In this document: positions 52,412 through 59,214 of the stretch, one piece after another
How positions within the stretch are numbered: the first letter of the stretch is position 1
How the letters are laid out: the number at the start of each line of letters is the position of its first letter
Position numbers and translations under genes: made by a program
Source: Alphaproteobacteria bacterium
GTDB taxonomy: Bacteria > Pseudomonadota > Alphaproteobacteria > UBA828
Length of the DNA: 64,000 bases
Direction of reading: 5' to 3'
Assembly (NCBI GenBank): GCA_965237415.1
Contig: CBDEFM010000002.1
Span: forward strand, 3,584,001-3,648,000
The notes under the pieces: model-generated
The model's database searches: none
What the model was told of the DNA's origin: nothing
The model's input: only the letters and a program-made list of their open reading frames with translations

Positions 52412-53914
52412 ATGTACGGCGTGGAGCTCTATGCGGCGGTTCGACTGGCGGTTGTCGACGAGGGTTTGAGCCATCACGAGGCGGGCCGTCGGTTCGGCAT
52501 CGACCGTCGCACGGTGAAGAAGATGCTGAGCTATTCGGCGCCGCCGGGCTACCGCCGGACGAAGCCGGTCAGGCGGCCCAAGCTGGACGGGTTCACCGGC
52601 ATCGTCGACGCGATCCTGGAGGCGGACACGGATCCGGATGTGCCGCGCAAGCAGCGCCACACGGCGCACCGGATCTTCGAGCGGCTGCGGGACGAGTACG
52701 GGTTCACCGGCGGCTATACCATCGTGAAGGACTATGTGCGTTCCCGGCGGCAATCGACGCGCGAGGCCTTCGTTCCACTGCATCACCCGCCGGGCCATGC
52801 CCAGGTCGACTTCGGCGAGGCGGTGGTGGAGCTGCGGGGGCAGCGGGAGAAGGTCGCCTTCTTCTGCCTGATCCTGCCCCATTCCAACGTCTGGTTCGTC
52901 AAGGCCTATCCCCGGGAGACGACCGAGGCCTTCCTCGACGGCCATGTCAGCGCCTTCGCCTTCCTCGGCGGGGTTCCGCGCTCGATCCTCTACGACAACA
53001 CCACCCTTGCGGTGGCGCGGATCCTGGGGGACGGCACGCGCCGCAGGACGCAGGCGTTCTCACATCTTCAGTCGCACTACCTGTTCCGCGACCGCTTCGG
53101 CCGGCCCGGCAAGGGCAACGACAAGGGCAAGGTCGAGGCCCTGGTGAAGACGGCACGGCGCCGGTTCATGGTGCCGATCCCGAAGGTGCATGACCTGTCG
53201 GTCCTGAACGAGCGGCTGATGGCGCGCTGCCTGGAGCGGCTCGACGCGCTGGAGGAAGGCGACCGGGCGGCGGCGTTGCTCGCCGATCTCGACGCCCTGC
53301 GCGATCTGCCCGCCGTCCCCTTCGAGGCCTGCGAGCATGTGCCGGGCCAGGTCTCGTCCACGGCCCTGGTGCGCTACCGGCTGGTGGACTACTCGGCGCC
53401 GGCGGTGCACGCCCACAAGAAGGTGACGGTCAAGGGCTATGTCGACCGGGTCGAGATCGCGCTCGGCGCCGGGATCGTCGCCCGCCATCGGCGCTCCTAT
53501 GTCCGCGGCGACGTCGTCTACGACCCGCTGCACTATCTGTCGCTGCTGGAGAGGAAGCCGGGCGCCCTGGACCAGGCGGCGCCGCTGCGGGGGTGGAAGC
53601 TCGATCCGGCCTTCGACACGCTGCGCCGCCTCCTCGAAGCCCGCTTCGGCCCGCGCGGCAAGCGCGAATACATCCAGACCCTGCGCCTGCTGGAGGACTT
53701 TCCGGAGCGCCAGGTGACGGCCGCGGTGCAGGACGCGGTGAAGCGGCGCGTGATCGGCTTCGATGCCGTCAAGCACCTGCTGCTGGCGTGCATCGAGAAG
53801 CGGCCGGCCCGTCTCGACCTGGCGCGCTACCCGCACCTACCCCAGCCCTTCGTCGCTGCCACCCGGGCCGCCGATTACGCCACCCTGCTGGCCGGAGGGG
53901 CCGGCCATGGCTGA
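52412..53914 (+). CDS. istA: IS21 transposase
   Basis: QVDFG, LYDN, KGKVE. Confidence 0.95.
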   Translation: MYGVELYAAVRLAVVDEGLSHHEAGRRFGIDRRTVKKMLSYSAPPGYRRTKPVRRPKLDGFTGIVDAILEADTDPDVPRKQRHTAHRIFERLRDEYGFTGGYTIVKDYVRSRRQSTREAFVPLHHPPGHAQVDFGEAVVELRGQREKVAFFCLILPHSNVWFVKAYPRETTEAFLDGHVSAFAFLGGVPRSILYDNTTLAVARILGDGTRRRTQAFSHLQSHYLFRDRFGRPGKGNDKGKVEALVKTARRRFMVPIPKVHDLSVLNERLMARCLERLDALEEGDRAAALLADLDALRDLPAVPFEACEHVPGQVSSTALVRYRLVDYSAPAVHAHKKVTVKGYVDRVEIALGAGIVARHRRSYVRGDVVYDPLHYLSLLERKPGALDQAAPLRGWKLDPAFDTLRRLLEARFGPRGKREYIQTLRLLEDFPERQVTAAVQDAVKRRVIGFDAVKHLLLACIEKRPARLDLARYPHLPQPFVAATRAADYATLLAGGAGHG

Positions 53915-54270
53915 AGCGCCCCGCATCCTGCTCGAGCATCACCTGAAGAAGCTGAAGCTGCCGACCTTTCTGCGCGAGTACGAGAAACTGGCGCGCCAGT
54001 GCGCGGCCGAGGGGCTGGATCATGTGCGGTTCCTGGCCCGGCTGGTGGAGCTGGAGATGATCGACCGCGAGCGCCGCCTGGTCGAGCGCCGCATCAGGCA
54101 GGCCAGGTTCCCCGTCGTCAAACAACTCGAGAGCTTCGACTTCAAGGCGATCCCCAGTCTCAACAAGATGCTGGTGCTGGATCTCGCGCGCGGCGATTAC
54201 ATCGACCGCCGCGAGAACGCGATCCTGCTCGGGCCCTCGAGTCCGAGTGCATAATGCACACCTCGCTACG

Positions 54271-56330
54271 TTATTGAAAATCCAGCTGTTCCTGGTTCGG
54301 ATCGGCTGTTAGCGGGCGCGATTGGCGCAGGTCAGTGCCGTACAGGGCGTCTATCAGCGCCTCCGGGATGGCCCATGGCCCTCCCTTGCACACCTGCGTG
54401 GCGTCGATTGTGCCGCCCGCAATCAACCGCAGCACCGTCATCTTGCTGATGCCGAGCCGTGCGGCGGCATCGGTCAGCGTCAGCTCGCCCCGCTCCGCCA
54501 TCTCGCCTGATCGGAAGACGGCAACGCCACGGCTATTGCGGAAGGTGCGCACCCGCGCTTCCGTCCACGAGTTGCCTCGCCCGGTCTTCTTGCCGAGGCG
54601 GTTGAGCGTGGCCGCGATCGCGCCGTCCGGCAGCTGCCTCGCCAGTCCGCGAACCAGGTCGACCACCTCGGCGCTCGCCGCCCAGCGATGCTGTCCCCTA
54701 CGGTTGCGCGGCACGCTCAGACGCGTGTGGTCGCCGCCACGCCAGTGGAGAAGAAGGTCAACGCAGCCATCGGCCAGCGTGACGACGATCTCCTCCAGAA
54801 CCGCGCGCAGGATGGCCTTGCGCGTCTCGGCGGTGGCATCGGGGCGCGACCACGCCGTCGAGAGATCATCGCCCAGCGCCATCAAGCGCTGTTTCTCCGC
54901 GCATGACGGTGCCTCCGGACGGGCGGCCGCAGTGGCGGCGAGCCGCTCCTCCTGCCGGCGCACCTCCGCCAGCCGGTCGTTCCACCGTCGCTCCAGCTCG
55001 GCCGCGACAAGGCGGTTAGCTGGATCGACGGCATCGTATTGGCGCTGTGCCAGATCGGCCTCGTAGCGCGCCTGCGTCAGCGCCAGCTCCGCCTGCCGTC
55101 GGATCTCGGCGTTGTCGCTCTCACGGGTCTCGATGGCGGCCAGCGCCGCTTCGACGCCGAGCGGAGATAGCAGTCGCAGCACTGCATCGCCGACCGCAGT
55201 ATCCACGCGCAAGCCGCCGAAGGCGATGCACGGCCTGGTGCCGTGGTTGACATGCGCGCCTTGGCAGCCGTAACGGACGCAGTACCCCTTGGTGCCGCTG
55301 TAGTGGACGTGCACACGCCGGCCGCAGTGTCCGCAGCGCAGCAGGCCCGCGAGCAGCGCATCGCCGCGGCGCACGGCGCCCCTTGCCATCAAGCCCCGCA
55401 GTTGGCGTTGTCGGCGATCAGACGCTGGTTCCTCTCGTACTCGTCCCAGGAAACGTAGCCTTCGTGGTGATCGCGGATCAACACGTCCCAGTCCGCGCGA
55501 TCGCGGCGAAAGCCGCGCGTGACGCGCTTGCGTCCGTTCTCGACGGTCACGCGGCTCTCCGTCCGGCCAAACGCGTACGCGCCGGCGTAGACGGGGTTGG
55601 TCATCAGCTTGTGGACGGTGCCGTAGACCGGCGGCTTCCAGACAATATGGCGCTCCTTGCCAACGATCCTGACGGCCGGCAGCAGCACTTCCTCCTGCCG
55701 CAGCCAGAGGTGGACCTGGCGGATGCTCCGGAACTCCGCGAACTTGCGGAACACGAGATCGATTGCCTCACGCACGCGCCGGTCGGGATCCTTGGCGATC
55801 CGGTCGCATCGGACCTTCACGTAGCCCACCGCGACGCTGAGGAATAGCTCGCCACGGGACGCCTTCAGGCGCAGCGCCTCGAGCGAGCGCTGGCGCAGCG
55901 TCGAGAGCTCCATCTCCGACAGCGTCCCCTTCATACCCAGCAATAGACGGTCGTTCGGCAGGCGAGGATCATACAAGCCGTCCTCGTCGCCCAGCAGGCA
56001 GCCCACAAGCGCGCAGAACTCCAGCAGCGTGTGCCAGTCGCGGCCGTTTCGAGCGAGCCTCGAAGCCTCCAGCGACAGCACGATGCCGACGCGCCCTTCG
56101 CAGATCGCCAGCAGCAGCCGATCGAAGCCCGGCCGCGACGTTCCGCCTCCAGAGCGGCCGAGATCCTCGTCGATAATCACGGGCTCGTCCCAGCCCAGAC
56201 CGCGAGCCCGATCCGCAAGGCCGTACTGACGACGGCGGCTCTCGTGGTTGTGCCGCAGCTGGTCCGGCGTCGACTGCCGAATGTAGACGACCGCCTCGCG
56301 CGCCAGATGGTCAGGCGCGATCTTGTTCAT
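54271..56330 (-). pseudogene. Large serine recombinase (resolvase + recombinase + Zn ribbon), one frameshift at ~55392
   Basis: YIRQST, EASRLARN, TNPVYAG, LLRCGHCG; two ORFs 55389-56330 and 54271-55392. Confidence 0.88.
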
Positions 56331-56496
56331 CGCCCGCCTCCTTCTCCGTGGCCGTCCCGTCCGCCATGTCCTCCGTCGGGTTCGCTGCCGCTTCGAGCAG
56401 CAGCGCCGCCAGTATCGGGATTACCGCCCCTCGCATCGCCGGCGTGAGTGCCGGACCCGGCTCCAGTAGTTCCAACAGCTCTCCCTGTCTTCCCAT
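56311..56496 (-). CDS. Small accessory protein of recombinase element
   Basis: ATG with GGAGG upstream; overlaps recombinase start. Confidence 0.6.
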   Translation of the reverse strand: MGRQGELLELLEPGPALTPAMRGAVIPILAALLLEAAANPTEDMADGTATEKEAGDEQDRA

Positions 56497-56801
56497 GTCG
56501 CCCTCCCAAATCCATGCGGGAGGGCGATGGTAGAACAGCGTCGATGACCGAACGGAGGTCGCGCAGGGCGTCCAGCGCGATCCGCGGCTGATCCGTCACC
56601 GTCATCGCCGCCGCGTCTGGAAAGCACATCCAGGTCGGTATCTGCGCCAGCGTGCCATCCGGCTGGCGGACGACGTAGATCATGGTCCCCTTGAAGCGGT
56701 GGCGCCGAACCACTTCCACGCGCTGGCCCGTGCGGGGGTGGAAGGGGTAGTGGATCTTCGTCGGACCGCCCTGGTATCGGGCAGTGTGTGGCTGTTCCGT
56801 C
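56327..56801 (-). CDS. DUF5372/Y4bD-like accessory gene lacking a start in the integrated state
   Basis: Open frame ..HTARYQGGPTKIHYPFHPRTGQRVEVVRR..IPTWM extends to the element end. Confidence 0.65.
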
Positions 56802-57309
56802 AGGCGTCGGCAAGACGCATGTCGCGCTCGCCCTCGGGCTTGCCGCCTGCCAGAAGGGCCTCTCCGTGCGCTTCACCACCGCCTCTCACCTGGTCCACGA
56901 GATGATCGAGGCGCGCGACGAGAAGAGGCTCCTCCGCCTCCAGGACCAGCTCGCCAGGGTCAATCTCCTGATCGTCGACGAGCTCGGCTACGTGCCCCTC
57001 TCGCAGACCGGAAGCGAACTGCTGTTCGACGTCTTCAGCCGGCGCTACGAAAACGGCGCCACAATCGTGACCTCAAACCTGCCCTTCCAGGAATGGACAA
57101 CGGTCTTCGCCAGCGAACGCCTCACCGGCGCGCTGCTCGACCGCATCACCCACCATGTCCATATCCTGGAGATGAACGCAGACAGCTACCGGCTCAAGCA
57201 GAGCCGGTCACGACGCCGGCTGCCGTCCGAATAACCCCGCTTGACCGCGTGGGCCCACAGGCCCTATATGGACGCCTCCCGGTGGCAAGGGCCGATTCGG
57301 TGCTCCGGG

Positions 57310-57542: not shown

Positions 57543-58586
57543 CTAACCGGGCTGACTGACGAAGTTCGGCCGGTAAGTTCGGTCGTGGGCCAGCAAGGCC
57601 CAGATCGTGCGTGCGGTCTTGTTGGCCAGTGCGACGGCGGCCACGTTCGCCGGCCGCCGCTCGGCCAGGCATGAGGCCCATTCCGGCGGCGATTTGCTCG
57701 TGGTGAGTACGGAGCGGGCGCCGTGGATCAGCAGGGTACGCAGGTAGGTGTCCCCACGCTTGGAGATGCCCCCACGCTTGGAGATGCCGAGCATGCGTAC
57801 CCGCCCGCCGGTGCCGCTGTGGCGCGGCACCAGACCGAGCCAGGCGGCAAACTCCCGGCCGGACCGGAATGCGGCGGGATCGCCCATCATGGCCACCGCG
57901 GCGGTCGCCGTCAGCACCCCGACGCCGGGGATCGCCGCAATCCGCCGGCTTGCGACATTGTCCCGATGCCAAAGCTTGAGCCGTCGCTCGATCTCGCCGA
58001 TCTCCTCATCCAGGCGGCTCACGCGTGCCCACTGCTCCCGCAAGGCCTCCACCACCATCGCCGGCAGACGCTCCGAGACCCGAGCGAGGGCCTCGGCCAT
58101 GCCTCGACGCAGACCGGCCCGGCCCTTCGGCATGACCTCGCCATATTCGGTCAGAAGGCCTCGCAGGCAGTTGATCTGCGCGGTGCGGAACTTCACCAAC
58201 TGCTGGCGCATGCGGTGCAGCGCCAGGATCGCCTGCTGCTCCTCGGTCTTGATCGCAACCGTCTTGATGCCGGGTTGTTGCACCGCCGTCCAGATCGCGC
58301 GTGCGTCGTGCGCATCGTTCTTGTTACCGCCCACGAAGGGCCGAACCATCTTCGCTGACAGCAGCCGTACCTCGTGGCCGAGCTCGCGCAGCCGCCGTCC
58401 CCAGTGCTGCGAACCGCCGCACGCCTCCAGCGCGACAAGGCACGGCGCGCGGTTGGCGAAGTGTTCGAGGAACTTCGTCCGTGTCAGCCGTAAATCCACG
58501 ATCTCGCCCGTTTCCATGTCGACCCAATACAGTTGAAACACCCGCTTCGCCGTATCCACGCCCACGACCGTTCTGCTAATCTTCAT
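57543..58586 (-). CDS. IS110 (IS1111) recombinase with 18-bp in-frame duplication
   Basis: VGVDTAK, LEAC, KNDAHDA, IPGVG; GISKRG duplicated (57752-57787). Confidence 0.93.
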   Translation of the reverse strand: MKISRTVVGVDTAKRVFQLYWVDMETGEIVDLRLTRTKFLEHFANRAPCLVALEACGGSQHWGRRLRELGHEVRLLSAKMVRPFVGGNKNDAHDARAIWTAVQQPGIKTVAIKTEEQQAILALHRMRQQLVKFRTAQINCLRGLLTEYGEVMPKGRAGLRRGMAEALARVSERLPAMVVEALREQWARVSRLDEEIGEIERRLKLWHRDNVASRRIAAIPGVGVLTATAAVAMMGDPAAFRSGREFAAWLGLVPRHSGTGGRVRMLGISKRGGISKRGDTYLRTLLIHGARSVLTTSKSPPEWASCLAERRPANVAAVALANKTARTIWALLAHDRTYRPNFVSQPG

Positions 58587-59214
58587 CCGGACCCTCCGGT
58601 TTGCCTGGGAAGACACCGAATCTTCCCCCTTGGCACTTAGATGCCGTCGGCCCGTGAGGGTCCACCTCAACCCTCCCGACCGCCGGCATCAGGGGTGGGA
58701 GGCGTCCATTCCATTCTCCCACGCGCGGGCCGCAGCCAGCCGCGCGGAGGGCGCGTCGCCCCGCGCGCGGGTCCCTCCCATGGACTACGCGGACAAGCTC
58801 ACGCCGAAGCCCGTGGTACATTTTTACGCCGCCGCGCCGGTACATAATCCCGCCGCCGTTGACAGTCTGGATCGACGCTCTGCGGCAAACCCATGTTTCG
58901 ATTGACGCCCTGGACAGACAGCGAACCCTGTACGGCAATTGGGTTCTCTGCTAGTGTCGCCATGAAAATGGCAACGACCATTTTCCGGGAATTGATCCCG
59001 AGTGGGCCATCGTCGCGAGCGTCACGAAGCATCGGCTCTTGACCATGGTAGGCAGAGCGGCGGGTAGCACGGTCGCCGCGTCGCAGTAGTTCGATAGGCC
59101 GGCCGCGCGAACCCCGCCGACGGGGTTGGACGTCACGCGCAAGCTGGCGCAGGCGTCGCCGCGACACGTTCCGCACAAGAGGCGGAACGGCGCGTCGCAA
59201 CAGGGGAGGCAACA

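Follow-up and report, generated by a model that had tools for sequence, protein, structure and literature searches.

A DUF5372-like gene probably separated by integration from its ribosome-binding site and start codon in a serine-recombinase element inserted in Walker A codons

Several switches are known by which a mobile element may register whether it is inserted or free; one of them, a joint promoter, is reportedly present in Tn4451, and another occurs in mycobacteriophage BPs, the integrase of which is said to be a tyrosine integrase. In BPs, attP, the attachment site of the free form, lies in the repressor gene and immunity depends on integration: the 3' end of the gene is exchanged, and the viral form carries a degradation tag (available part of PMC4557955). 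In the archaeal suicidal (SSV-type) integrases, the site lies inside the tyrosine integrase gene, and the available part of the source places such recombinases only in archaea (PMC8371274). In the case of the circle promoters (ICEclc Pcirc, ICEKp1 P3'end and the junction promoters of insertion sequences, IS), the higher expression from the circle is thought, according to the accessible passages of the three reports, to aid re-integration (PMC5812530, PMC13023037, PMC11187229). Here we describe a large-serine-recombinase element of 2563 bp, at positions 54237-56801 of a 64,000-nucleotide stretch of alphaproteobacterial DNA (UBA828 lineage, contig CBDEFM010000002.1; the whole stretch is called the window below), the first gene of which, a DUF5372-like gene (gene 1), is probably separated from its own ribosome-binding site and start codon by integration; this is not so in BPs, the suicidal integrases or the circle promoters compared.

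The three genes of the element, gene 1, an overlapping small open reading frame (ORF2) and the recombinase gene, are all on the minus strand. The body of gene 1 (56327-56800) consists of a 15-codon N-terminal extension (56800-56756), the DUF5372 domain and a low-complexity tail reaching the recombinase start. Its frame, which holds the HTARYQ and IHYPFHP motifs, is open to the element edge and shows no ATG, GTG or TTG ahead of the conserved domain: the upstream in-frame stop is 74 nt outside the element, and the first such codon in the ORF listing is that at 56719. At the opposite end, on the same strand, the recombinase stop codon TAA (54273-54271) is followed by GAGGTG (54264-54259), six bases, ATG (54252-54250), 11 bases and the dinucleotide GA (54238-54237). 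The Shine-Dalgarno (SD)-like GAGGTG thus lies 6 nt ahead of the ATG, and we take it to be a six-base match to the complement of the 16S rRNA 3' end (anti-SD). The positions of the recombinase stop, the GAGGTG-N6-ATG, the element end and the codon at 56719 had all been given correctly in a first-pass annotation of the window, in which the circle-borne start of gene 1 was first suggested.

According to the mechanism proposed here, this IS-like element would be moved by its large serine recombinase and would insert by a 2-bp crossover into the third Walker A codon of its target. The attP core would lie inside the 5' end of gene 1, the DUF5372 body being left at one integrated end and the SD, ATG and first four codons at the opposite end, just past the recombinase stop. 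The ATG and the following 11 nt (54239-54252, minus strand) would form the right arm of attP and encode the first four to five codons of gene 1 in the circle. The joining of the ends on excision, or any attP-bearing form, would create the sole complete translation unit of gene 1, and the full-length protein would be produced from the circle, not from most integrated copies. Its likeliest role would be that of a state-dependent cofactor changing the action of the recombinase once the element is free, the effect of which could be either a favoured re-integration or a blocked back reaction. An excision-state translational switch of this kind, in which the SD, the ATG and the first codons are supplied across the junction and a cofactor role is the likeliest, is the explanation to which we give the greatest credence, at a level well above even but short of confidence.

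The likeness to BPs is that attP would lie within a protein gene of the element, and that the excised and integrated forms would encode different products, the gene thus reporting the state; in BPs both forms are translated and the gene encodes a repressor, whereas here the 5' end with the ribosome-binding site and the start is removed, and the product is a recombinase-associated DUF5372 protein. As in the SSV-type elements, a gene would be whole only in the circular form, but the serine recombinase is left whole by integration (its ORF, 54271-56330, lies wholly inside the element, so that the site is not inside the recombinase gene), the hosts are bacterial, and only about five codons and the translation signals are separated. 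As in the case of the circle promoters, far-end signals would take effect on the first gene only once the ends have been joined; the circle promoters, however, are transcriptional and the gene keeps its own start, whereas here the translation start itself would be supplied across the junction. If the proposed switch is real, it is a very compact means of sensing the inserted versus the free state, one segment serving as recombinase site, ribosome-binding site and coding sequence, and it adds a translational 5'-end version to the known state switches (repressor 3' end, split archaeal integrases and circle promoters). In the literature searched, with supplements and subscription journals outside its scope, no description was found of a start codon or ribosome-binding site split across attP, nor of serine-recombinase elements aimed at Walker A codons, and DUF5372 was mentioned in 0 papers.

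The crossover dinucleotide GA is present at both ends of the element, at the recombinase-distal end (54237-54238, minus strand) and at the gene-1 end (56800-56801, minus strand). The host of the insertion is an IS21 carrying istA followed by istB, which encodes an AAA+ ATPase, and the element interrupts istB inside the Walker A codons; when the empty site of the window is rebuilt, it yields an intact GxxGxGK motif (codons LLGP-S / GVGKTH). The genome carries three copies of the element, differing by no more than 2 substitutions, each in the same codon of a separate diverged IS21, the flanks of which show 88-92% identity on one side and 97% on the other (BLAST). Contigs from two public metagenome runs join 54236 to 56800, skipping 2563 bases and sharing 2 letters; the sides of these joints are short (20-28 nt), and the joint is an empty istB site. 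The element ends are therefore independently supported by the near-identical copies at the same istB codon and by the contig joints skipping 2563 bases. A repeated unit including istB sequence was also considered and was rejected, the flanks being diverged IS21 copies according to BLAST. The near-identical copies at different sites suggest that the element is mobile, and the sequences of the ends indicate that insertion is conservative, with a 2-bp crossover and without any longer duplication of the target.

When one genome was scanned for each species, the gene-1 protein was found to have 99 relatives, 80 of which were kept. They occur in Alphaproteobacteria, Vicinamibacterales, gammaproteobacterial metagenome-assembled genomes (MAGs), Binatia, Thermodesulfobacteriota and others, often in many copies per genome, and the layout is kept across many phyla. 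Ahead of IHYPFHP, the frame is open at all the loci read and is conserved (H-T/N-A-R/G-Y-Q-like) up to about four codons before the His codon, at which point the copies diverge. In nearly all the loci, the recombinase stop is followed by a block composed of AGGTG, one base, GCAYYATG and 11 bases. The layout SD-ATG-11 nt-crossover is not due to chance: it is present in 51 of the 53 loci having a recombinase end and enough upstream sequence, the block being absent only from L025 and L087. At each of the 51 loci for which both ends are available, the ATG is found 14 nt ahead of the crossover, and 11 nt beyond the latter comes the first base of the conserved His codon; the distance from ATG to His is always 27 nt, and the joined reading is therefore in frame. 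No stop codon was found in any of the 51 joined readings. The collection of homologues and the in silico rebuilding of attP thus support the earlier proposal, the junction ATG being kept in frame across the family (51/51 loci, with 0 changes of the ATG), and, at the sequence level, the placing of attP inside gene 1, in that the ORF is open to the crossover and its start would lie across the junction in 51/51 loci.

The joined frame is also supported by the target sites. Rebuilding the empty site gave an intact in-frame GxxGxGK[ST] motif at 43 of 50 loci (39 of 46 distinct sites), and the crossover is always situated in the third Walker A codon, in the same orientation. Since the Walker A motif is intact upon rebuilding, the length removed is fixed, and hence so is the joined frame, independently of the spacing within the element. 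The targets are mostly IS21 istB-like genes, although some of the motifs resemble by eye those of other AAA+/P-loop proteins, and the crossover dinucleotide (GA, GG, GT or CT) tracks the Ser, Pro or Thr codon at that position. Judging by these rebuilt sites, the element family homes to Walker A (GxxGxGK[ST]) codons; a family targeting such a short, near-universal motif may be of practical interest, and of interest for the ecology of elements parasitising other elements.

Gene 1 was assigned to DUF5372 (PF17342) with a score of 26.9 bits (cut-off 25; E 4.9e-6), the match spanning only positions 1-43 of the 78 in the profile and position 1 corresponding to residue 16 at the IHYPFHP motif; the closest protein-atlas clusters are also DUF5372 (score 0.94). 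From the His codon through the domain, 147/87/310 substitutions were counted by codon position (14 pairs), which indicates that gene 1 is under purifying selection. In the HTARYQ codons, the tree of 32 end haplotypes shows 5/8/22 changes by codon position. Changes in the codons for R, Y and Q, located 4-6 codons in from the left end, affect mainly the third position, and translation must therefore begin upstream of these codons. That gene 1 might be a 5'-truncated relic, or have its true start at the internal GTG at 56719, is in keeping with the frameshifted recombinase of the window copies, with the truncated remnants present in the genome and with the occurrence of GTG at this codon in 41 of 59 distinct sequences, but the codon is not GTG in the other 18, and the seven invariant residues H17, Y18, F20, H21, P22, R23 and G25 all precede it, as does the beginning of the Pfam profile. 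The coding signature moreover spans the left end through the domain, and the layout would not be expected of a relic given its wide distribution. We regard this explanation as extremely improbable and close to refuted. The first-pass annotation had named two codons that might turn out to be the real conserved start, this GTG and a CTG at the junction; neither of them is conserved, the latter being derived from the flank and differing between loci.

The same genome also carries canonical DUF5372 genes at two loci, L094 (G000 C2:3091839-3092069, minus strand) and L101 (C2:2282691-2282921, plus strand), which cover the full profile with 75-82 bits. Each has its own GTG directly before THPFHP, and downstream of it lie a 165-aa ORF and the gene of another large serine recombinase; the two loci represent a second, different type of DUF5372-recombinase element. 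The Pfam family and the neighbourhood are the same as those of gene 1, whereas the subfamily present in the window shows a 15-codon start-less extension to the element edge. Since the canonical genes have their own GTG, the loss of the start is a derived trait of the window's subfamily, not an annotation artefact.

The conservation of the far-end signals can be read in more than one way, and several observations weigh against the proposed switch. The element ends form an inverted repeat: GCAYYATG on the right arm (54250-54257) mirrors the His-Thr/Asn-Ala codons on the left arm (56777-56788), each 12-19 nt from the centre, and the ATG and the His codon (CAT or CAC) are reverse complements at equal distances from the crossover (12-14 nt from the centre in both cases). 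The spacing of 3+11+2+11 nt thus results from the symmetry of attP, and the conservation of the frame is not independent evidence of translation; with this symmetry taken as given, an in-frame spacing has a prior chance of about 1 in 3. The needs of DNA recognition could account for the conservation of the ATG. The four codons after it show no coding periodicity (13/23/19 changes by codon position), as would be expected under a DNA-recognition constraint and no less for a free N-terminus. In the integrated state, 17 of 65 loci have a possible GTG or TTG of their own, located at the element edge in 8 cases and 2-5 codons before the domain in 9, and a further 10 loci have flank-derived (insertion-site) starts only; gene callers picked such starts, for example in P0004 and P0006. 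All these data would suit an explanation in which the ATG and GAGGTG are kept only for attP recognition, gene 1 being started otherwise when integrated (at a near-cognate codon, in the flank, or at an edge GTG or TTG) and the in-frame joint being accidental.

This explanation accounts less well for the other features. The remaining 38 of the 65 loci have no in-frame ATG, GTG or TTG between the upstream stop and the domain, yet the gene is strongly selected; in L063, L068 and L083, the upstream stop is merely 14 nt outside the element. The alternative GTG and TTG codons vary between close relatives. On the right arm, the ATG underwent 0 parsimony changes in the tree of 32 end haplotypes, whereas the mirror position on the left arm is either CAT or CAC, with 3 changes. 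The sequence AGGTG.GCA is almost invariant (AGGTG shows 0-3 changes per site), and the SD-like sequence has no mirror counterpart on the left arm; in L067 and L068 it is replaced by GGAGGA, and the site therefore remains SD-like while its letters change. Symmetry leaves unexplained the one-sided SD, the constancy of the ATG as against its variable mirror, and the alternative start that a strongly selected gene would need. Recognition alone is thus, in our opinion, an unlikely account, although a serious one, and the far-end ATG is, to judge from these comparisons, probably the working start of gene 1.

Other points against the excision-state switch concern the ends, the recombinase and the promoters. 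The dinucleotides are equal at both ends in 40 of the 51 loci but unequal in the other 11 (L034, L035, L050, L054, L058, L062, L074, L076, L080, L084 and L085), where the geometry is kept; this may be due to flank exchange between copies, to later mutation or to chimeric MAG assembly. The recombinase of the window is split into 313 + 373 aa by a single-base deletion near 55397, and this frameshift is common to all three genome copies (window, L002 and L003). An allele with the extra base is present in public runs (24.7 of 24.7 depth in X6, one contig in X1), and the recombinase is intact, with 682-690 aa, in 38 of 53 related loci. Either the frameshift is genuine, in which case the copies may be mobilised in trans, or it stems from a systematic error of assembly. 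The deletion site is read through in L004, a 91% relative in the same genome, the recombinase-distal end of which is deleted beside an ABC-transporter gene fragment.

As regards transcription, no sigma-70-like promoter and no terminator were detected in a scan of positions 54000-57100. A weak match to TTTTCA-N18-CATYAT (8 of 12) overlaps the ATG in 15 of 38 sequences and, if it is real, transcripts would start downstream of the ATG. These two points could be taken to mean that the switch is a transcriptional one, in which an outward promoter at the recombinase-distal end drives the operon in the circle only and the ATG is incidental, and there are precedents for this in the available parts of the reports on Pcirc (PMC5812530) and ICEKp1 P3'end (PMC13023037). 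The match is nevertheless only 8 of 12 with an 18-nt spacer, and the recombinase C-terminus and the half-site already constrain the sequence in which it is located; above all, such transcripts would carry no gene-1 start codon, and the start-less ORF would therefore still be unexplained. We consider a purely transcriptional switch improbable. A promoter further upstream in the 3' end of the recombinase gene would be compatible with the translational switch and would serve both; since the element has no non-coding room, the promoter of a circle operon would have to sit inside the recombinase 3' end, the predicted place being the last ~200 nt of the gene. By analogy with ICEclc Pcirc and ICEKp1 P3'end, the integrated operon would rely on read-through.

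The search for the joined form gave the following results. Among the joints listed for the assembled contigs of four public runs, none was a circle joint between the two element ends, contigs being liable to drop rare forms and 119 loose ends lying outside the joints listed. A degenerate pattern built from two motifs of the joined site matched metagenome contigs 3 times, always by chance, since none of the matches has a DUF5372 gene. No relative of the gene-1 protein was found in viral contigs, and none of the 11 relatives obtained in a protein search, which sees few relatives, had a junction-type N-terminus. The RNA runs X17 and X18 yielded contigs of low depth that cover parts of the element and cross one junction in a different IS21 context, and are uninformative on starts, strand and level. 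With the ATG, the one-sided SD and the start-less body considered together, an excision-state translational switch is probable at the level of sequence comparison.

The possible function of the gene-1 protein was addressed by structure prediction. Residues 1-101 were modelled with a predicted local distance difference test score (pLDDT) of 80.5 as a small SH3/KOW-like barrel plus a helix. Foldseek gave no hit at E<=0.001 for this model, and its structural neighbours are generic SH3/KOW/Tudor-like barrels alone (best VIA Z 5.3). The intact natural recombinase of L011 (684 aa) was co-folded with its own DUF5372 part, using a 25-row alignment for each. The score was 0.72, versus 0.00 for the best of 3 controls; the 0.72 mark is attained in 58 of 80 solved complexes and in 2 of 110 mismatched pairs, which is only a rough guide here since custom alignments were used. 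The runs agree in at least 82% of the contacts, and the pLDDT of the partner is at least 73. The predicted recombinase interface comprises residues 332-338 (in the Cys-rich ribbon), 386-402 and 471-536, which flank the segment read from the alignment as the coiled coil; residues 505-510 and 529-535 of the recombinase and the helix at residues 71-90 of the cofactor are part of the predicted contact. [quoted passage not shown] Recombination directionality factors (RDFs) of serine integrases act at this zinc-ribbon/coiled-coil-base region, according to the available parts of the reports (PMC11795197; PMC11722253), and a role of the gene-1 protein in directionality fits the co-fold model.

The gene-1 protein resembles the RDFs of large serine integrases (gp3, gp47, TG1 and SPbeta) in being a small accessory protein encoded beside the integrase, with the same predicted contact region. 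It differs from the known RDFs in showing no likeness of sequence or fold (the barrel matches have Z values of about 5), and its synthesis after excision would be the opposite of what an excision factor needs. This is a further difficulty for the proposed switch, since it would be a paradox for a classical RDF to be produced solely once excision has taken place. A cofactor produced only by the circle would be understandable if it promoted re-integration or locked the product, but not as a classical excision factor. One may go further and speculate, with considerable reserve, that attP acts as a molecular memory, one arm bearing the ribosome-binding site and start and the other the cofactor codons, and that the cofactor is a reverse directionality factor in these minimal Walker A-homing elements: the recombinase alone would excise, whereas together with the cofactor it would catalyse integration or be prevented from running the back reaction, giving a two-state, self-resetting cut-and-paste cycle with no regulator. 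If the cofactor role is correct, it gives the orphan family DUF5372 a function that can be tested, that of a cofactor of serine integrases. Both serine integrases and their directionality factors serve as tools of genome engineering, where a new class of cofactors, possibly with a reversed logic, could be useful.

The 162-aa ORF described in the first-pass annotation stands in so far as the joined frame is open, but only about the first 100 codons carry the frame-0 coding signature. The tail of gene 1 (the last 55 or so codons) shows no such signature (172/177/152 substitutions by codon position) and overlaps a conserved +1-frame ORF, and the C-terminal third of the 162-aa ORF is, on these counts, doubtful. 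The overlapping frame, ORF2 (56311-56496, minus strand; 61 aa), is in the +1 frame with respect to gene 1 and has its own ATG with a purine-rich leader. It is conserved at the protein level in all the families, and in 36 of 39 distinct sequences it terminates 20 nt downstream of the recombinase ATG; no match was found in Pfam. In P0003, P0005 and P0010, ORF2 is fused in frame to DUF5372. Both frames are open across about 55 codons, frame 0 being open to ATGA in all the families, so that dual coding or a programmed frameshift is possible, and the openness of frame 0 to ATGA would suit translational coupling. An ATGA overlap between the gene-1 stop and the start codon of the recombinase is present in the window and in 36 of 53 loci, and the translation of gene 1 and that of the recombinase may therefore be coupled.

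The N-terminal part of the recombinase (55389-56330, minus strand) carries the catalytic and recombinase domains (Pfam Resolvase PF00239, 1.6e-22; Recombinase PF07508, 3.4e-12), and the C-terminal part (54271-55392, minus strand) carries the zinc ribbon (Zn_ribbon_recom PF13408, 5.9e-9), a presumed coiled coil and HTH_17 (1.6e-7). The presence of Resolvase, Recombinase and zinc beta-ribbon domains of one protein places it among the large serine recombinases.

On the plus strand, the IS21-family istA of the host of the insertion lies at 52412-53914 (Pfam Mu-transpos_C_2, 2.6e-18), and its rve match, with 32.4 bits, is slightly below the Pfam cut-off of 32.6. The 5' part of istB (53907-54236, plus strand; start deduced from the ORF listing) ends in the Walker A codons (..LLGP + S), and the 3' part (56802-57234, plus strand; Pfam IstB_IS21, E 3.5e-49) opens with GVGKTH. 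In two more distant IS21 copies in the genome (G000 C2:~52640 and C2:~2257570), the same motif, GPSGTGK, is found in an istB that is uninterrupted and free of the element. Truncated remnants of the element are located at G000 C2:66043-66742, C2:3147393-3147898 and C1:22800-23297 (L005-L007); in one of these remnants, istA sequence is fused directly to an internal point of the element, and another keeps the recombinase-distal 498 nt alone, in an IS21 identical to that of the window. Just past the IS21 end, a 375-aa ORF (57543-58670, minus strand) resembles by eye an IS110-family transposase.

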